A DNA stretch of 64,000 nt. Source: Raja brachyura. Its lineage: Eukaryota. The stretch's first letter is position 1; the number at the start of each line of letters is the position of its first letter. This document shows, one piece after another, positions 4,001 to 63,710 of the stretch. A program made the translations under genes and the position numbers. Below the pieces are notes generated by a model, which did not search any database, was not told the DNA's origin, and worked only from the letters and a program-made list of their open reading frames with translations. The DNA lies in the NCBI GenBank assembly GCA_963514005.1, contig OY740816.1, positions 25,172,001 to 25,236,000 on the forward strand. Direction: 5' to 3'.

Positions 4001-4980
4001 TTTGCTCCCAAAGTGGATAACCTCACGTTTATCCACATTAAACTGCATGGCGGATGCAGTTTAATGTGGATAAATGTGAGGTTATCCACTTTGGGAGCAA
4101 AAACAGGAATGCAGATTACGATCTAAATGGTGTCGTTGGAAAAGGGAAAGTACAACGGGATCTGGGGGTCCTTGTTCATCAGTGGATGAAAGTAAGCATG
4201 CAGGTACAGCAGGCAGTGAAGAAAGTGAATGGCATGTTGGCCTTCATAACAAGAGGAATTGCCTATATGAGCAAAGAGGTCCTTCTGCAGTTGTATAGGG
4301 CCCTAGTGAGACCACAGCTGTGCATTTTTGAGGAAGGACATTCTTGCTATTGAGGGAGTGCAGCGTAGACTTACAAGGTTAATTCCCGGGATGGCGGGAC
4401 TGTCATATGCTGAGAGAATGGATCGACTGAGCTTGTATACTCTGGAGTTTAGAAGGATGAGAGGGGATCTTATTAAAACATATAAGATTATTAAGGATTT
4501 GGACTCGCTAAAGGTAGGAAACATATTCCCGATGTTGGAGTCCAGAACCAGGGGTCACAGTTTCAGAATAAGGGGTAAGCCATTTAGAACGGAGACGAGG
4601 AAACACTTTTTCCTCAGAGTTGTGAGTCTGTGGAATTCTCTGCCTCAGAGGGCGGTGGAGGCCGGTTCTCTGGATACTTTCAAGAGAGTGCTAGATAGGG
4701 CTCTTAAAGATAGCGGAGTCGGGAGATATGGGGAGAAGGCAGCAATGGGGTACTGATTGGGGATGATCAACCATGATCGCATTGAATGGCGGTGCTGGCT
4801 TGAAGGACCGAATGGCTTACTTCTTCTTGCGTATAGCGTGCAGAGCCTAAAGTTGTAGGACAACTTGTTCTATTTGATTGCACGCCAAGTTGATTGCATT
4901 CGTCGAAACAGGGCGGACCACGTGAAGTTTGCAATCTCCCAGCCCTGGCCTACTCCTGCACCTATTGTGTATTGTCTATT
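4001..4980 (+). mobile_element. 5'-truncated CR1 LINE (ORF2 C-terminus and 3' UTR) with 5' fold-back duplication
   Basis: ORFs 4054-4353 and 4328-4756 match the CR1 ORF2 end (MQFNVDKCEVIHFG, VQRRLTRLIPG, RMRGDLI, RTRGH); 3' UTR ends in (ctattgt)n. Confidence 0.9.
4822..4945 (-). mobile_element. HDV-ribozyme-headed short retroelement, copy 1
   Basis: Inserted in the CR1 3' UTR, TSD tggc(t/c)tact at 4813-4821 and 4946-4954; (GAA)n tail; ribozyme region 4892-4945 has mismatches in P1 and P3. Confidence 0.85.
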
Positions 4981-5324: not shown

Positions 5325-5630
5325 GGGGGCGGGGCCATGGGCTGCGTGACGCGGTGGGGAGGAGGGCCCTTGAGCATGATTGACGTACATTCATCCAATC
5401 GGTCGTCTGGGGGCGCGACTATGGGTGCGTGACGCGTTGGGGGCGGGATCTTGAGTATGATTGACGTACATTCATCCAATCAGTCGCCTGGGGGCGGGAC
5501 TATGGGTTGCGTGACGCGATGGGGGGCGGGGCCTTGAGTATGATTGACGTACATTCATCCAATCGGTCGTCTGGGGGCGGGACTATGGCTTGCGTGACGC
5601 TTCTGCATGATTGACGCGCATACATCCAAT
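5325..5630. repeat. ~82-bp promoter tandem repeat, ~3.8 copies (GC box + 2x TGACG + CCAAT per unit)
   Basis: catCCAAT recurs with CCAAT at about 5396, 5476, 5559 and 5626 (spacing ~80, 83, 67); units are near-identical. Confidence 0.92.
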
Positions 5631-6047: not shown

Positions 6048-6082
6048 GTGCGTTCCGGGCGAGGGGTTGATCAATGGAGGAG

Positions 6083-6700
6083 GGAGAGACACTAAATACT
6101 GGGGGGGGGAGAGACACTAAATATTGGGGGGGGGGGAGAGACACTAAATACTGGGGGGGGGAGAGACACTAAATATTGGGGGGAGGGAGAGACACTAAAT
6201 ACTGGGGGGTGGGAGAGACACTAAATAGTGGGGGGGGGGGAGAGACATTAAATACTGGGGGGTGGGAGAGACACTAAATACTGGGGGGGGGAGAGACACT
6301 AAATACTGGGGGGGAGAGACACTAAATACTGGGGGGGGGAGAGACACTAAATAGTGGGGGGGGAGAGACACTAAATACTGGGGGGTGGGAGAGACACTAA
6401 ATACTGGGGGGGGGGAGAGACACTAAATACTGGGGGGTGGGAGAGACACTAAATACTGGGGGGTGGGAGAGACACTAAATACTGGGGGGTGGGAGAGACA
6501 CTAAATATTGGGGGTGGGAGAGACACTAAATATTGGGGGTGGGAGAGACACTAAATATTGGGGGGGGAGAGACACTAAATATTGGGGGGGAGAGACACTA
6601 AATACTGGGGGGTGGGAGAGCTACTAAATACTCGGGGGAGGGAGAGACACTAAATACTGGGGGGTGGGAGGGACACTAAATACTGGGGGGTGGGAGAGAC
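6083..6700 (+). repeat. G-rich minisatellite, ~24 units of ~25-27 bp (GGAGAGACACTAAATACTGGGGGG(T)G)
   Basis: Directly visible; G-run length varies between units. Confidence 0.97.
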
Positions 6701-7400
6701 AAAATGCTGGAGTAACTCAGCGGGTCAGGCAGCATTTCTGGAGAGAAGGAATGGGTGATGCTTAGGGTCGAGACTTTTCAGACAGAGTCAGGGGAGAGGG
6801 AAACAGCTATTGAAGGGTAAGGTGTGAAAACGACAGATCAAAGGTGATGATTAAGAAATGTAGAATGGTTCATTTCACAGGTAGACACAAGATGCTGGAG
6901 TAACTCAGCGGGACAAGCAGCAACTCTGGAGAGAAGGAATGGGTGATGTTTAGGGTTGAGACCCTTCTTCAGAATTCCTTCTCTTCAGAGATGCTGCCTA
7001 CCCTGCTGAGTTACTCCAGCATTTTGTGTCTACTTTTGATTTAAACCAGCATCTGCAGTTCTTTCCTACACATAGATTGGTTCGTTATTGACTATGGCGA
7101 AGGTGACAAGAAGGCATACAATCATAAAAATTAATCAGTAGGACAGTGAAACAAGTTGGAGAACTAGGGTGAGAGAGGGATGGAGAGAAAGGGAACGCCA
7201 CAGTTACTTGAAGTTAGAGAAATCAATATTCATACTGCTGCATTGTAAGCTTCCCAAGTGAAATATGAGGTGCTGATCCTCCAATTTACATTGGGTCTCA
7301 CTCTGGCAATGGAGGGGGCCCAGGACAGAAAGGTCAGAATAGGAATGGGAAGGGGAGTTAAAGTGTTCAGCAACCGGGAGATTATGCAGGCTTAGGCAAA
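6696..7400 (-). mobile_element. Penelope-like element 3' end: GIY-YIG endonuclease C-terminus plus pLTR
   Basis: ORF 7204-7446 ends PVAEHFNSPSHS..DLSVLG..HCQSE..KLEDQHLIFHLGSLQ.SSMNIDFSNFK, typical of the PLE GIY-YIG tail; followed on the minus strand by the pLTR repeat with a decayed hammerhead core (~6755-6781). Confidence 0.8.
6875..7072. mobile_element. Inverted (hairpin) pLTR insertion nested in the Penelope fragment
   Basis: gtagacacaagatgctggagtaactcagc ... gctgagttactccagcattttgtgtctac; flanked by imperfect direct repeats tagaatggttcatt (6861-6874) and tagattggttcgtt (7073-7086). Confidence 0.75.
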
Positions 7401-12437: not shown

Positions 12438-13865
12438 TTTAGAAACATAGAAACATAGAAATTAGGTACAGGAGTAGGCCATTCGGCCCTTCGAGCCTGC
12501 ACCGCCATTCAATATGATCATGGATGATCATCCAACTCAGTATCCCGTACCTGCCTTCTCTCCATACCCTCTGATCCCCTTAGCCACAAGGGCCACATCT
12601 AACTCCCTCTTAAATATAGCCAATGAACTGGCCTCAACTACCCTCTGTGGCAGAGAGATCCAGAGACCCACCACTCTCTGTGTGAAAAAAGTCCTTCTCA
12701 TCTCGGTCCTAAAGGATTTCCCCCTTATCCTTAAGCTGTGACCCCTTGTCCTGGACCTCCCCAACATTGGGAACAATCTTCGTGCATCTAGCCTGTCCAA
12801 GCCCTTAAGAATTTTGTACGTTTCTATAAGATCCCCTCTCAATCTCCTAAATTCTAGAGAGTATAAACTGAGTCTATGCAGTCTTTGTTCATAAGACAGT
12901 CCTGACATCCCAGGAATCAGTCTGGTGAACCTTCTCTGCACTCCCTCTATGGCAATAATGTCCTTCCTCAGATTTGGAGACCAGAACTGTACGCAATACT
13001 CCAGGTGTGGCCTCACCAAGACCCTATACAACTGAAGTAGAACCTCCCTGCTCCTATGCTCAAATCCTTTTGCTATGAAAGCTAACATACCATTCGCTTT
13101 CTTCACTGCCTGCTGTACCTGCATGCCTACTTTCAATGACTGGTGTACCATGACTACCAGGTCGCTCTGCATCTCCCCTTTTCCTAATCGGCCTCCATTT
13201 AGATAATAGTCTGTTTTCCTATTTTTGCCACCAAAGTGGATAACCTCACATTTATCCACATTATACTGCATCTGCCAAACATTTGCCCACTCACCCAGCC
13301 TATCCAAGTCACCTTGCAGTCTCCTAGCATCCTCCTCACAGCTAACACTGCCCCCCAGCTTAGTGTCATCCGCAAACTTGGAGATATTGCCTTCAATTCC
13401 CTCATCCAGATCATTAATGTATATTGTAAATAGCTGGGGTCCCAGCACTGAGCCCTGCGGTACCCCACTAGTCACTGCCTGCCATTGTGAAAACGACCCG
13501 TTTACTCCTACTCTTTGCTTCCTGTTTGCCAGCCAGTTCTCTATCCACATCAATACTGAACCCCCAATGCCATATGCTTTAAGTTTATATACTAATCTCT
13601 TATGTGGGACCTTGTCGAAAGCCTTCTGGAAGTCCAGATACACCACATCCACTGGTTCTCCCCTATCCACGCTACTAGTTACATCCTCGAAAAATTCCAC
13701 AAGATTCGTCAGACATGATTTACCTTTCGTAAATCCATGCTGACTTTGTCCAATGATTTCACCACTTTCCAAATGTGCTGCTATCCCATCTTTAATAACT
13801 GACTCTAGCAGTTTCCCCACTACCGATGTTAGACTAACTGGTCTTTAATTCCCCGTTTTCTCTCT
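12438..13865 (-). mobile_element. Young 5'-truncated CR1 LINE with a 427-codon open RT region
   Basis: ORF 12537-13820 has QHGF, YLDFQKAFDKV, SGVPQGSVLGP and KFADD; (tttctatg)n tail; just upstream the NYRP motif carries an in-frame TAA. Confidence 0.97.
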
Positions 13866-22985: not shown

Positions 22986-24513
22986 CAATTTTACTGTATC
23001 TCAGTTCAATCAACCAAAATAAACCAATACTAATTCCTTCTAGAATCTTTTCCAGGTTACACCAATATAATATTGTGGGAGCAGTATTTAGTATGATGTA
23101 GTCAATAGCTGCAGCTGTACAACACAGCCACACCATAACTAATATTGATTTTCAAGAAAGTTAGCTTAGCATGGGTTAGGCCCTGTCACCCATAAATGTA
23201 TGACATTGGATCCATAATTGCAAAGGCTGAAACTCCCAATCCAGTTCTTGGTTTCGGTGAGACATTTCACAAGAGCTTACCCAGAAACAAAGACGTAGTT
23301 GAGCAAATTCAACTTGTCATTGTTGTGAGCCCTTGGGAGGAAAAAAAGTGAAAATTACGCCCTATTGTCCACATACCGCCTTCATTTTTCAAATCTAATG
23401 CCTATTACAATCATGAATTTATCGTGGAGGTTGAATGCCCTTGTGGTGAGCAGCTCGTCCCATTTGCAAACGTTGTACTCACTAAATACCCCGTTAGCCC
23501 ATGTACAATCAAATACACTGATGAATGTTTACAATCAGAAAAACAATATAGAATAGTGGGGCTGTTCTGTAAGTGGCCTTCTGACTTCTGATCTCTGTAT
23601 TCAATGGAATAAATGGACAGTAGCTGCACATTATATCTTGTTCATGTGGTATAGTGTTAGCCAGCTCTCTAACACTATAGCACATTTTGTCATGGTAATT
23701 TACAATTATAGATCTAATGTCATATGTTTAGACTGCCATTCTCAACTCCTACAGTTCCCGTGAAGTTGCTGTGGATTTGTGTAACCATTGACTTTAAGAG
23801 AAATCTGTGTGAACCCTTCTGTGATCTTTGAGTGGCATTTCTTAAGCAACATGGCATGAAGCATAGACTGCTGTCCCGCTGTTTGACATTTTGAAGTCTT
23901 ATTGTAACATTGTGATCAACTACACATTTTTAAAGGCATCTAGGATCACCGACTTCTCCTTAGAGGATCATAGTTTAAAGGCATCACACTATTGCTGCAG
24001 AATTTTAGAGGAAAACCTGCCTTCATTTTGAGTTACTATTATAAGGCTTTGAACCATCTGTACAAGTTTATTATTGTTGTCAGCATTAAATCAGTATGCC
24101 TCGAGGGATCCTGATAATAACAGGCTGCCTTACTCCTCAAAGTAATCTGCAAACTTCAAATAACCATATTTTGTGTCATCTTGGATTGCCCTAATTAGGC
24201 TCAATGACTTCCTCTTTGAACAGTAGCATGAGATGATGAGAAATTGGTAGCAGAGCGGTTCAACAGTTAATGCTGCAATGTTGCAGCTGCTGTAACCCGA
24301 GTTCGATCCTGACCTCTGGTGCTGCCTTTGTGTAGTTTGCATGTTCTCATTGTGATTGCATGGATTTCCCCCCCACGTGAACTGGTTATTTCCAACATTC
24401 CTAACGATTCTTCCCCTCTGTTATCAGGTTTCTGAATGGTCTTTCCATAAACTAGGGTCCTGTTTGATTAACCTCCATTCCATTGTGGATATTGAACTTT
24501 GTCTTAGGGAGCT

Positions 24514-24650
24514 CCTTCTTCTTGCGTATGGCGTGCACAGCCTAAAGTTGTAAGACACCTTGTTCTGTTTGATCTTCTGTTTGTGCATGCCAGGTTGATT
24601 GCATTCGTTGAAACAAGGTGGACCACGTGAAGGTTGCAATCTCCCACCCC
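24514..24650 (-). mobile_element. HDV-ribozyme-headed short retroelement, copy 2 (best preserved)
   Basis: TSD tcttaggga(g/a)ct at 24502-24513 and 24651-24662; (GAA)n tail; 5' end GGGGTGG abuts the TSD. Confidence 0.9.
24597..24650 (-). ncRNA. Minimal HDV-like (CPEB3-type) self-cleaving ribozyme, 54 nt
   Basis: P1 GGGGUGG/CCACCUU (G1-U wobble), J1/2 GA, P2 GAUUGCA/UGCAAUC, P3 ACC/GGU, L3 UUCACGU, J1/4 GU, P4 reduced to UUCAA, J4/2 CGAA with the catalytic C. Confidence 0.85.
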
Positions 24651-25439
24651 TCTTAGGGAACTGATTCACTACAATGCTGAGTACTATATTCTATACTCTG
24701 TATCTTCCCTTTTATTCATCTATTGTACTTGAGTTTGAACTGACTGTATCTGCTGTATGCATGGTTTATCCGAACTGTTTGGATAGCATGCAAAACAGGC
24801 ATTTCACTGTACTGAAAGCTTAGCATGTGACAATAAGATATGGCAGCGTGATAAACTGCTGTTGCCCTCTCACATGGCCGTCACCCTAAATCTTCTACCA
24901 CCAACTTGTGCTAGATATAATTTTCAGTAATCAGTTAACCTACCAGCCAGCAAATCTTTGGGATCTAAGAAGAAACCCACGTAGCCACAGGAGATCATGC
25001 AGACTCCACACAAACAACATTGGAAGTCCTGATTAAACTTGGGTTGCTGGAGCTGCGAGGCATTAGCAATACCTGATGCACCAATGTGATGTGTTCCGTG
25101 GTGTAGTAACAAAGGAAGTGGACCAACATCAGACAAGAATGAAACGTTACACTGATGATGCACATGGTGCATCCATTCATAAGGACACATCCTGTACTTT
25201 GTAGTAACAGCTATACCAGGAGCCTAATGCATGTGGCTGATTTGATAAGGAAGGGTAGAGAACAGCATGCAGTCAGTTAAGTTAAATGGCTTCAGCATCA
25301 TGAACACAAATGGATGAACAACAAACATTAATGGAACAAAATGTTAGATTGCAGGTGTTTTGAAAGTTCACAACTATAGCTGACATCTGACCACTGGAAA
25401 ACTGCCCTCTTAGGATTCTTCAATCAGCTTGTCCTTGAT

Positions 25440-40400: not shown

Positions 40401-41529
40401 AAAAGTTATTTTTTAAATGACCGCCCTTGTAACAATGGGACGATATATTTCCTTGTGAAGCTACGAATGCTAAATTATGAGGATATTTTTTGTTGGGGCA
40501 TAAGTCCCAATGGCATAAGTATTTTGTGGCATTTTGTATGGCATAAGTCTTGATTTAATCTCCAGAATAATTTGTGTAAAAAATCCATGTTTGATTTCTG
40601 TTCAGCATCATGTGATTTATCAGCCTGCTATTAATAATGGTGAGTAGTGCACTCATTCTGAGGCGATATCTGCACTGCATCAGCATAATGGCACCATTCA
40701 ATGTATTTCAACATCAACTACGAACAACTTCCATAATTTAGCAGTTCTAAGTAAGTCAAGATGAATTTATACAGCCAATTTTATGGGTGTGGTCATCTAC
40801 TATTTAGAATTATAGCACATAGTTTCCACATTCTGCAAGTTATCTTGTAACACAGCTTATCACATACATAAAATAACATTAATTACAGTCCTATGTAAAG
40901 ACAAACATCTAACATTTACATTTCCATTATTACAGGTAGAACCTGCTGAATCAGGGATACCAATATTATGGGGAGAAGGCAAGAGAATGGGGTTAGGAGG
41001 GAGAGATAGACCAGCCGTGATTAAATAGCGGAGTAGACTTGATGGGCAGAATGGCCTAATTCTGCTCCTGTCACTTGTAACCTTATGAATCATCACCCAG
41101 GAGACATGAACATATACTGTCCTTGAATGTCTAGGTTGTAAGAAGAGGGTGAGGAAACTTCTGGTTCGACCACATTCTCGTATGGTTGAGTTAATCTCAG
41201 ATCTTGATAATGTTTCAACACATGATTATCATCTTGACAAACCTCCACTGGAACTGGTGCAGTGCTCTCAGCTTTTTCCCTTGTGCTTACGATATCTTGC
41301 ACAAATGCAGAATCGTCTACTTTAAGTGGATGTGCTGATGCTGAGGATAAGATGTCAAGGGTTATGGATATCCTGATGAATCTAACCTTGGAAGCAAATG
41401 GATTCTTACTTTCTGCAACATAATATAAATTAGTAAGGATATCAATTTTTCCTAAATATTCACTCCATGAAGCTACTGAATCATTGAAAGAATCTGAAGT
41501 ACCAAGCATTCTCATCTTGACTCAACTTT

Positions 41530-50000: not shown

Positions 50001-50533
50001 ATATCCTTATATCATATTATAACCAACTGGAAACGAAATCCATTATTTTCCATCTTCCTCCAGTGATGATCGATCTGACAGAAGATGACACTATTTCTTG
50101 TGGACCCAAATATTTTTATATCTCATTCCTTCAACAAACTTTAAAAACTTACATTGGTATTGAAGTCACCGTCTTGCATTTTATCCTGCTTATTTTAACT
50201 TTGTCAAGGCAGTTCAGGAAAATTCTAAAATTGTATGAGAATTTGTATTCTGTACATTTCTGGCAGCTGTGTTTCTGCTCTGATTTAATGATGGAGATTC
50301 AGCTAGATTATCCATTGAACGTCAGAGCCACACAAGCACTTTAAGCAGCTGAGCCTTTCTGTGTGGTGATATAGGATTGATTATTTGACAGTTTTAATTT
50401 GTTGAATGCCTAATATTTTACAGTGCATTTTAGATCAGTTTGTCATATTAATCTTTAGGCCCCATGACCATTTGAAAAGCTTTTCACTGTACGTCGGTAG
50501 ACATGACAGTAATAAACTGAAGTAATGGTGTTC

Positions 50534-50673
50534 TTCTTCTTCTTGAGTAAGGCGTGCACAGCCTAAAGTTGTAGGACAACTTGTTCTATTTGATCTTACT
50601 TGATTGTGCACGCCGGGTTGATTGCATTCATCGAAACAGGGTGGACTACGTGAAGGTTGCAATCTCCCACCCC
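50534..50673 (-). mobile_element. HDV-ribozyme-headed short retroelement, copy 3
   Basis: Perfect 14-bp TSD aagtaatggtgttc at 50520-50533 and 50674-50687; ribozyme 50620-50673 has catalytic C>T (UGAA) and P3 G>A. Confidence 0.9.
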
Positions 50674-52088
50674 AAGTAATGGTGTTCCTCTAAATATGAT
50701 GAATTAGTGGAAAATGTGTACACACTGTTGCCCTCCCTTGTGATCTTAGTGGGTAGCATGGTGGGGGAGCTGTATGCTAGAATTGAGTTGTTTTTTATTT
50801 TAATTTCTCACCTCAAAAAACCACCGATCCATGTGGACGTCAACATTCCAGTCAACTGAACAGCGGAGGACGTCGCAGATGAGCCAATCTAGTCCTTTCT
50901 TTCCGTCTCCCACCCTGCATGACCTTCACCAACCAACACTTCATGCTCATCAGAAGCTACAATCATTGAACTATGAGCAGTAACAGCTGTGGCAATTTTC
51001 TGCTATCTCTGACTCGAGCAACCCATTTAAAAGAGATATATTGCCTGACCCGCTGAGTTACTCCAGCATTTTGTGTCTATCTTTGGTATAAACAAGCATC
51101 TGCAGTTCCTTTTAATTTCATAACACAGTTTAGTTCAGTGTGATGGCTGGAAGAAATGTAAAATAACGTAAATTTAAATAGCTGGGAGGGGGTGGGAGAT
51201 GGCAGGGGGAGAGAAGTAGTTGGAGGAGCTGGAAAGAAACATTTGAAAAAAAATCTGCTAATGTATATGAAAAAGTAAAAGAAAACATTTGCAGAATTTA
51301 TCTAGCAAGAAAAGAGGTAGGGAAAACATATTTAAAGAGCCACAGAAAACAGTTAAATAAGATATGTGCAAGGGATATTAAAATTAATATAAGAGCTATA
51401 TGATTATATTCCGTGAAAAGTGGTGGTCGGGTGTATGCCTTGGGGCGTTACAAAAGTACAATAAACGATATAACCGTAAATGTGCAATACAGTACAGTCA
51501 AAAGAATTGATGCCCAGCTTCCAAATAATATATATCTCTTTAGTGGGAAAACAAAAACATCAGGAAAAGAGGTTGTATCCGTGGCTATGAAGCAGTTAAA
51601 GATGGTGTTGGATACAAAAAGAGTGTTTAATGCTGCCAGTTGAACAGCTGGAGGATTTGGAAAATAATCATAATCAAATCATCATAATTCAGCAAAGGAG
51701 GATAAGGGGATGTAAAGCAGAATAGAACAGTAGGCTACAAAACTTAAAAGCGTTACAGTGAAAGCTTACAGAGGTCATTCCAAAGAAAATGGTCCTTTAT
51801 TGTCACGTGTACCGAGGTACAGAGAAATTTGAGTTGCCATACAATCATACCAAAAGAGCAACAAGATACAAAACTACATAAAGATTAAACATGAACGGCC
51901 ACCACAGTGGTGTGTGAGAATCCCCAAGGCACACAGCATAAGCAGAGACTAACAGGCAACAGTTCAATGTCTGGGTCACATACACACGCTACTTCACCGT
52001 GATGTGACCAGAGTCGGCGACTTCACATTCCCCACTGTGATGGACGGCGATTAACTTTTACCTTCTTCCTCCTTTTCTCCCGAGTTTG

Positions 52089-57437: not shown

Positions 57438-57875
57438 AGGGCGGTCACGGTGGCGCAGCGGTAGAGTTGCTGCTTTACAGCGAATGCAGCGCTGGAGACC
57501 CGGGTTCGATCCCGACTACGGGTGCTGTTTGTACAGAGTTTGTACGTTCTCCCTGTGACCTGCGTGGGTTTTCTCCCACACTCCAAAGACGTACAGGTTT
57601 GTAGGTTAATTGGCTTGGTAAATTGTTCCTAATGTGTGTAGGATTGTGTTCTTCTTCTTCTTGCGTATGGCAACTTGCATATGGACAACTTGTTCTATTT
57701 GATCTTATTTGATTGTGCATGCCGGGTTGATTGCATTCGTCGAAACAGGGCGGACCAGGTGAAGGTAGCAATCTTTCACCTAAGGGAAGTGTTAATGTGC
57801 AGGGATCACTGGTTGGCGCAGACAAGGTGGGCCGAAGGGCCTGTTTCCGCGCTGTACCTCTAAACTAAACTAAAA
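57438..57875 (+). mobile_element. Near full-length HE1-like tRNA-derived V-SINE
   Basis: A box TGGCGCAGCGG, B box GGTTCGATCC, 3' tail ctaaactaaact; interrupted by the ribozyme element at 57651-57782. Confidence 0.88.
57651..57782 (-). mobile_element. HDV-ribozyme-headed short retroelement, copy 4 (more diverged)
   Basis: Same body and (GAA)n tail; ribozyme region 57729-57782 keeps CGAA and P3 but P1 5' strand, P2 and L3 are mutated; degenerate TSD (..gtgtt). Confidence 0.8.
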
Positions 57876-63074: not shown

Positions 63075-63710
63075 GGCCTTTATAAATCAGAGCATTGAAT
63101 AGAGGAGTAGGGAAGTAATGTTAAAATTGTACAAGGCATTGGTAAGACCAATTCTGGAGTATGGTGTACAATTTTGGTCGGCTAATTATAGGAAGGATGT
63201 CAACAAAATAGAGAGAGTACAGAGGAGATTTACTAGAATGTTGCCTGGGTTCCAGCAACTAAGTTACAGAGAAAGGTTGAACAAGTTAGGTCTTTATTCT
63301 TTGGAGCGCAGAAGGTTAAGGGGGGACTTGATTGAAGTCTTTAAAATGATGAAAGGGATAGACAGAGTTGACGTGGATAAGCTTTTCCCATTGAGGGTAG
63401 GGAAGATTCAAACAAGAGGGCATGACATGAGAATTAAGGGACAGAAGTTTAGGGGTAACATGAGGGGGAACTTCTTTACTCAGAGAGTGGTGGCTGTGTG
63501 GAATGATCTTCCAGCAGAAGTGGTGGAGGCAAGATCGATTTTAACATTTAAAAGTAAAGTGGATAGGTATATGGACGGGAAGGGAATGGAGGGGTATGGT
63601 CTGATTGCAGGTAGATGGGACTAGGGGAAAATAAATGGTCGGCACGGACTGGAAGGGCCGAGAAGGCCTGTTTCCGTGCTGTAATTGTTATATGGTTATA
63701 TGGTTATATC
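63075..63710 (+). mobile_element. 5'-truncated CR1 LINE (second subfamily)
   Basis: ORF 63118-63624 LYKALVRPILEY.VQFW..ERVQRRFTRM..RRLRGDLIEVFK..TRGH; tail (tatggtta)n. Confidence 0.92.

Follow-up and report, generated by a model that had tools for sequence, protein, structure and literature searches.

A probable bipartite derivative of a Vingi-type LINE in Raja brachyura, headed by a predicted P4-less HDV-like ribozyme

The stretch of Raja brachyura DNA analysed in this work (64 kb, called the window below) carries four copies of a short element, all on the minus strand, with pairwise identities of 79-91% (E 1e-21 to 1e-48) when each copy was compared with the window by BLAST. There is no fifth copy in the window, all other BLAST matches being no better than E 0.006. 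The first-pass annotation had described four minus-strand copies of about 125-140 bp, and BLAST recovers these four, with copy 1 starting at 4820 instead of 4822. Copy 2 (24514..24650, minus strand) is the only one in the window that has kept the whole core of the predicted ribozyme described below. Copy 1 (4820..4945, minus strand), nested in another repeat, has a 12-nt internal deletion, and one P1 and one P3 pair of its core are broken. Copy 3 (50534..50673, minus strand) has one broken P3 pair and has lost the C at the catalytic position. In copy 4 (57651..57782, minus strand) the 5' end is decayed, the 3' part is rearranged and G1 is lost.

The first base of copies 1-3 is the predicted G1, with the target site duplication (TSD) directly adjoining, as had been claimed and as alignment and inspection of the TSDs confirmed. 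The TSD of copy 2 is 12 bp long (minus strand; upstream 24651..24662, downstream 24502..24513, 11/12 matching with one mismatch), that of copy 3 is 14 bp and exact (50674-50687 / 50520-50533), and that of copy 1 is 9 bp with one mismatch (4946-4954 / 4813-4821). The 9-14-bp TSDs reported earlier thus hold for copies 1-3, whereas copy 4 has a weak TSD only.

Copies 1 and 4 are embedded in other common repeats. Fragments of CR1-like reverse transcriptases lie at 4310-4756 (+), 12537-13844 (-) and 63103-63624 (+) of the window, and there are two tandem arrays, one of an 83-bp unit repeated 3.3 times (5325-5600) and one of a 26-bp G-rich unit repeated 24 times (6082-6701). An exon-like open frame of 142 aa (41093-41521, minus strand) has no Pfam or protein database match, and no host gene was found in the window in a Pfam search that covered 50 of its 187 open frames with a length of at least 70 aa. 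With four copies in 64 kb the short element is about six times as dense here as in the genome on average, and chance could account for all four copies lying on the same strand (two-sided p 0.125).

The assembly containing the window (2.7 Gb, 1,647 contigs) yielded at least 1,942 candidates for the short element, which is about 135 bases long. The copy number in the genome was estimated from 7 copies found in 696,734 bases that had been obtained without using the short element as query, and amounts to about 27,000 (95% range roughly 11,000-56,000). Of this sample 200 kb, with 2 copies, were placed arbitrarily, whereas the other 497 kb were chosen by LINE proteins and are non-random; the whole sample and the 200 kb lead to the same estimate of about 27,000. 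The high copy number inferred earlier from the window was in this way borne out.

The 5' ends of the copies are uniform. Among 61 unique copies spanning the internal joint of the element (a filter that excludes copies truncated further 3'), 58 have their first base at G1 ±2, and all 7 copies in the 696,734-base sample reach G1 ±2. When loci were selected by the 3' 72 bases alone, 28 of 30 kept the head at G1 ±1, and the remaining two were cut at positions 11 and 13. The piling up of 5' ends at G1, first noticed in the window, is thus a property of the family, and so are the lengths of the TSDs: a TSD was found in 48 of the 61 copies, it measured 9-14 bp in 46 of these, and it abutted G1 in 36 of the 48. 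No sequence upstream of G1 was common to the copies compared. The base preceding G1 was T in 32/52 copies (p 2e-6 against 29.5%), and extra, non-duplicated bases at the 5' joint were T in 7/48 and G in 2/48. The preference for T may come from pairing of the target with an untemplated A of the cDNA, or from a cleavage preference. Many TSDs open with A/G-rich bases overlapping the (GAA)n tail of the element, which is what priming by the tail on the nicked strand should give. These features, the TSDs and the (GAA)n tail, indicate that insertion is by target-primed reverse transcription. One short copy (L190:1364-1501) was found inserted, with a 10-bp TSD, in a copy of the LINE identified below as its parent.

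In DNA sequencing runs from four other organisms, contig depth summed across the element exceeded that of the flank by 4-5 orders of magnitude, a ratio that does not give copy number. Contigs leading from the flank into the element were found for the copy 3 insertion in the runs of three of the four organisms, and since this insertion is common to them, the burst of the family is not recent. No empty-site allele was seen in the contigs of the four runs among the joints listed (15 of 536).

The element has several hallmarks of short internally deleted elements (SIDEs): it is multi-copy, has no ORF, is flanked by TSDs and ends in a simple-repeat (GAA)n tail. Neither a tRNA nor an A/B box consensus was found at the four loci, in agreement with the earlier failure to see Pol III boxes, and the head is derived from a LINE, which sets the element apart from Pol III SINEs. 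The LINE was reached through a Pfam search for LINE endonucleases, which gave a full-length element (L112) with a similar head fold, and then through a protein search with L112. It belongs to a family, designated C, of single-ORF LINEs of about 3.1 kb encoding an endonuclease and a reverse transcriptase. Bases 1-77 of the short element are located directly upstream of the endonuclease ORF in L176 and L182-L186 (86-91% identity), and bases 100-140 follow directly after the C-terminal Cys-His motif of the ORF in L191, L197, L199, L202, L207, L209, L211 and L212. Because L186 and L211 overlap on one contig, implying the LINE length of about 3.1 kb, a single LINE copy carries both ends. The search for a LINE sharing both termini, and the Ingi/Vingi-type partner that the tail had suggested, therefore both found their answer in family C.

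Alignment to the LINE copies shows that the short element consists of the first 74-79 or so bases of the LINE, a linker of about 20 bases and the last 40 or so bases of the LINE. In copy 2 (minus strand) the 5' part corresponds to 24572..24650 (alignment to L183), the linker, which aligns to neither LINE end, to 24553..24571 at the deletion joint, and the 3' part to 24515..24552 (alignment to L212). The 3' part holds the last ORF codons with the stop codon, a 3' UTR of about 25 nt and the (GAA)n tail. By folding back, the last part of the linker is able to pair with the opening bases of the LINE 3' piece, and the linker may have originated by such a fold-back. With its two LINE ends joined, the short element is a bipartite internal-deletion derivative, i.e. 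a SIDE like RIME and NARTc, and not a Pol III SINE. In the first-pass annotation it had been regarded as a non-autonomous, SINE-like parasite borne by a LINE; the absence of an ORF and the LINE partner agree with that view, but the element appears as an internal-deletion derivative of its partner rather than an independent parasite. An older-looking short subfamily (L101, L116, L175) has a head closer to that of the LINE.

Family C comprises 60 candidates of 77-93% identity; every copy read was broken, and copies are 83-90% alike. The 5' ends of the LINE are less exact than those of the short element: among 14 loci that match at the 5' end, 3 extend to position 1-2. In several LINE copies (L189, L191, L193, L197, L202, L207 and L209) the 5' part is inverted relative to the remainder, which we take to resemble the twin-priming inversions of L1. 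The nearest intact relative of family C is P0001 (1,019 aa, 62% identical). Endonuclease (PF03372/PF14529) and reverse transcriptase (PF00078) domains were detected in the parent fragments and in P0001. RNase H (PF00075) was absent from P0001, P0010, P0015 and the C-terminus of family E, in a scan that covered these relatives and detected the domain in the ORF of a Nimb-like control; the C-terminus of the parent itself was read by eye. In PDB no close relative was found, the best matches being L1 and R2.

In a reverse transcriptase tree the parent grouped with the set lacking RNase H and apart from Nimb- and CR1-like sequences (97/99), in a sampling of taxa that included no named Ingi, Vingi or RTE reference. 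The single ORF, the endonuclease and reverse transcriptase and the lack of RNase H in the scanned relatives point to a LINE of the Vingi type. A single ORF and the lack of RNase H are found in RTE-clade LINEs too, as are ribozymes and bipartite derivatives, and RTE is listed among the four clades with such derivatives in the available part of PMC5786205; with no RTE, Ingi or Vingi reference in it, the tree could accommodate an RTE parent. The nearest intact relatives, however, have a C-terminal Cys-His motif and no match to DUF6451, and elements with DUF6451 form a separate family in this genome. We assume that DUF6451 marks RTE, and that the Cys-His motif without DUF6451 marks Ingi/Vingi, and consider an RTE parent very improbable.

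At least four further Vingi-type families occur in the genome (A, B, D and E, represented by L112, L151/L214, L161/L165 and L162/L169), each with an HDV-like head and a (GAA)n tail; the 3' end of family A alone gave 1,758 candidates. These families resemble the short element in fold and type of tail, but not in sequence, and are not its direct partners. The top PF14529 matches, namely CR1-like families and a Nimb-like one that has RNase H, were also rejected as partners, as none of them has the ends of the short element. The genome contains in addition an abundant young LINE with ORF1 and RNase H (L061-L090, L114, L117, L127), presumably of the Nimb/I-like clade.

The head of copy 2 (24597..24650, minus strand, G1 at 24650) is predicted, on the basis of a descriptor match and covariation, to form a 54-nt HDV-like ribozyme. 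Its elements, all on the minus strand, are P1 (7 bp with G1 paired, 24650-24644 with 24621-24615), P2 (24641-24635 with 24603-24597), P3 (3 bp, 24634-24632 with 24624-24622), the 7-nt loop L3 (24631-24625), P1.1 (one pair, 24629 with 24614) and a putative catalytic C in J4/2 (24607). The pseudoknot descriptor matched the window once, with a perfect HDV-like fold at 24650-24597, and had no match in 20 Markov-model controls of 64 kb. Plain MFE folding fails to show the pseudoknot (z -2.0 to +0.7), and the window has no Rfam match at gathering score. On copy L004 the Rfam model RF02682 (HDV-F-prausnitzii) aligned to exactly bases 1-54 with 14.4 bits (E 2.1; cut-off 44), a sub-threshold score that is to be read as lowering membership of the named Rfam family, not the fold.

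For comparison, heads of five Vingi-type families of this genome and of three families from metagenome contigs were used; in the metagenome a relaxed descriptor applied to 20 loci gave clear heads for these three, the rest being incomplete or poor matches. The Vingi-type families have the same head topology at the 5' boundary, in different letters. In the eight heads that were parsed (the short element and families C, A, B, D, E, G and H; F was excluded because its P2 register is unclear) 126 of 128 stem cells are paired (P1 54/56, P2 48/48, P3 24/24), with up to four pair types per position, and in family B the P1.1 pair is T-A instead of C-G. As MAFFT left P2 unaligned across families, the counts are those of parsed stems, and they lean high because the registers were chosen by descriptor or by eye; the position of the fold at the 5' boundary of the element is evidence independent of that choice. 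The spacing between J1/4 and P2 is 9 nt in family C and the short element as against 21-50 nt in five other families (the copy from family D contains an insertion), and with only 9 bases available the former two lack P4. Taken together, the head of the short element is predicted to be a P4-less, or minimal, HDV-like fold kept by compensatory changes across LINE families. The HDV-like head of the first-pass annotation accordingly stands for the family, but not for the individual copies of the window, where the core is whole in copy 2 only.

Minimal HDV-like ribozymes, including the theta ribozymes of phages, have the same nested double pseudoknot without P4, with cleavage predicted before G1; in the available part of PMC10879173 they come, with few exceptions, from gut phages, where they often lie next to tRNAs, whereas the fold predicted here heads an animal retroelement. 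The absence of P4, a T-T mismatch in P1.1 and the Rfam score below cut-off would fit a fold that no longer cleaves and persists because it binds protein or protects the 5' end, the exact ends arising by copying to the end of a structured template. Such a role has a precedent in R2, whose template RNA is shielded from 5' decay by an HDV-like fold (PMC13708176, in part), and among trypanosome SIDER ribozymes some well-folded ones are inactive (PMC4035085, in part). On the other hand, P4-less HDV-like ribozymes cleave in vitro (PMC10879173), the parent LINE has retained the C at the catalytic position, as have 45 of 58 short copies, and no copy shares anything upstream of G1 with the others. The whole core is kept in 27 of the 58, a sample biased to young copies. 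Loss of cleavage thus seems quite improbable, and self-cleavage remains the preferred prediction.

In the short element the fold includes a 10-bp stem joining the LINE-5' piece and the LINE-3' piece; its 5' arm is 24582..24591 and its 3' arm, in the LINE-derived 3' UTR, 24530..24539 (both minus strand). This stem implies that the two ends of the 3-kb LINE RNA are complementary, and the family C duplex ends where the LINE-derived parts of the short element end. Pairing was examined across the families in fixed windows, 30 bases after P2 and 35 before the tail. The cognate assignment of heads to tails was the best of 120 for five families, and ranked 2 of 40,320 with eight, families F-H having been added after the idea of pairing was formed. 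Shuffled tails equalled the cognate pairing in 0/600 cases for A-E and in 3/600 for F-H. The data for families B and H derive from one tail each, and the cognate pair was best in only 6 of the 8 rows and columns. These results suggest, at the level of sequence complementarity, that the stretch immediately following the predicted ribozyme pairs with the stretch immediately preceding the tail in eight Vingi-type families.

The complementarity could also be an unselected by-product of fold-back copying or of chance palindromes, with the short element arising from ordinary deletion or recombination. The core of the arm is indeed palindromic in families B and C, the significance per family is weak (compared with random pairs of windows, each duplex taken singly lies in the 9-23% tail), and R2 SIDEs have been ascribed mainly to non-homologous recombination in the portion of PMC3414825 at hand. 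Against this, the eight families have unrelated arm sequences in the same placement, and the signal holds out of sample and vanishes in seven displaced windows (ranks 2,630-36,708) and in the reverse-complement control (rank 16,248). A by-product is in our view unlikely, although of the alternatives considered here it deserves the most attention; selected end pairing is preferred. In a second short family (L311/L312, see below) one copy pairs (10/1,000 shuffles) and the other, with an apparent 3' deletion, does not (885/1,000).

The end duplex also bears on the possibility that the head is mainly an internal RNA polymerase II promoter acting at the DNA level, with the ribozyme only trimming or secondary. 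Pr77, the 77 bases at the head of L1Tc and NARTc, is both promoter and ribozyme (PMC3383444 and PMC8256844, as far as their available sections go). With this precedent, the independence from a promoter proposed in the first-pass annotation stays conjectural. The short element retains about 77 bases of the LINE 5' end, 23 beyond what the fold needs, but these extra bases make up the arm of the duplex. Copying of a cap might add an extra G at the 5' joint, and no excess of G was found among the extra bases there (see the counts above). Because the heads are alike across families in structure and not in sequence, a function of the RNA fits better than a DNA motif, and a predominantly promoter function appears rather unlikely.

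The reading that we find likely, and that best accounts for the data overall, is that the short element, bipartite and non-autonomous, derives from a Vingi-type LINE of the same genome. A short copy would be transcribed within a host transcript, and the 54-nt fold would cleave just before G1, which would leave the RNA with an exact 5' end resistant to nucleases. The LINE protein would bind the joined ends in trans, nick DNA, prime on the (GAA)n tail and copy the 135 bases to G1; mobilization in trans by the parent protein is suggested by the shared ends. Active ribozymes in such derivatives have precedents in R2 SIDEs (PMC3414825) and in NARTco/TvSIDER1 (PMC4035085), both sources being available in part. 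More tentatively, the two ends of the full LINE RNA may pair across 3 kb, and the reverse transcriptase, having copied the 3' arm, may jump to the paired 5' arm and so delete the loop; the resulting short element would keep the end duplex as a hairpin. The short element is a real and abundant SIDE of a Vingi-type LINE, and as a SIDE it is probably no longer active.

The letters of L3, J1/4 and J4/2 in the head of the short element are those of the Rfam consensus of the CPEB3 ribozyme (RF00622), from which the head differs in P1 and P2 and in having no P4. The CPEB3 ribozyme is a single conserved intronic copy, unlike the multi-copy short element, whose own head has no match to RF00622 (cut-off 35) and is not a member of it. 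Other Vingi-type heads match this model with 52-66 bits: L307-L309, L310 and L313 from the same genome, and L252 and L253. L252 (head 2617-2689), a Vingi-type element with a TSD from a metagenome, scored 55.6 bits. In this genome 32 of 59 scored candidates passed the RF00622 cut-off, and seven were fetched. Three of these (L307-L309, 62.6-65.8 bits) head a sixth Vingi family, the ORF beginning immediately downstream. Two more are decayed heads standing alone, and in one of them, L310, the match extends to the letters of the CPEB3 P4 stem. The remaining two, L311 (G000:C3:78023420-78023620) and L312 (G000:C6:14741350-14741550), represent a second short element of about 135 bases, whose HDV-like head lacks P4 and scores 37.1 bits on RF00622; it has a (GAA)n tail, a 12-bp TSD in L312 and a body unrelated to the window family, and no parent was found for it.

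Since the letters of P1, P2 and P4 match although they are free to vary among HDV-like ribozymes, descent is favoured over convergence, and Vingi-type elements may, to judge from these matches, be the source of the mammalian CPEB3 ribozyme. Human DNA contains a Vingi relic, X12_LINE (PMC5753468, in part). A Vingi origin of the CPEB3 ribozyme is not stated in the available parts of PMC8233481, PMC10919898, PMC8256844 and PMC6765202, or of the literature on CPEB3 origin that was searched. In its widest form the interpretation would be that Vingi RNAs combine an HDV-like head with an end duplex required by the protein, that reverse transcriptase jumps over the foot of this duplex spawn ribozyme-headed mini-elements seeding tens of thousands of self-cleaving RNAs in vertebrate genomes, and that the mammalian CPEB3 intron ribozyme is a domesticated Vingi 5' end; this is put forward tentatively, as a possibility that we rate at somewhat below even.

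Bipartite LINE derivatives have been described before, namely RIME (from ingi), NARTc (from L1Tc), the R2 SIDEs and the hedgehog derivatives of Vingi-1_EE (PMC4035085, PMC3414825, PMC5786205, each in part). The short element is like them in the LINE ends joined by internal deletion, the lack of an ORF, the ribozyme head and the hallmarks of target-primed reverse transcription, but differs from the described SIDEs in its roughly 27,000 dispersed copies in a vertebrate, its P4-less predicted ribozyme and its pairing ends; it is also much shorter than R2Dwi_SIDE (135 nt versus 529 nt). The parent is compact, like Vingi LINEs such as Vingi-1_Acar, with a single ORF, endonuclease and reverse transcriptase and no RNase H (PMC13708176, in part), but all its copies seen here are decayed. 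In the portions of the literature compared, neither a ribozyme nor end pairing is mentioned for Vingi. The literature on Vingi and ribozymes, Vingi retrotransposons, minimal HDV-like ribozymes and retrotransposons, and SINEs of cartilaginous fish, as far as available and with Repbase and Dfam outside its scope, does not describe the family, and that on long-range end pairing in non-LTR elements gives, within the same limits, no account of such pairing. Published "Ingi" or fish ribozymes may already include Vingi heads. New to specialists, the bipartite kind itself being known, would be the end pairing and the CPEB3 link, both of them computational predictions.

If the predictions hold, thousands of copies could cut read-through transcripts, as the share of core-intact copies in the sample biased to young copies suggests, and a vertebrate would thereby possess minimal self-cleaving RNAs, as predicted here, in large number. 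Bipartite derivatives are confined to RTE, Ingi, Vingi and R2, for a reason given as unknown (Kojima 2018, PMC5786205, in part), and end pairing would offer a testable answer to why so few LINE clades make them. Vingi-1 has been used as a tool for RNA-based gene insertion with both UTRs on the template (PMC13708176, in part), and a natural template of 135 bases, amplified far beyond its parent, would mark out the minimal signals. The CPEB3 link, if true, would provide an origin for a conserved mammalian ribozyme.
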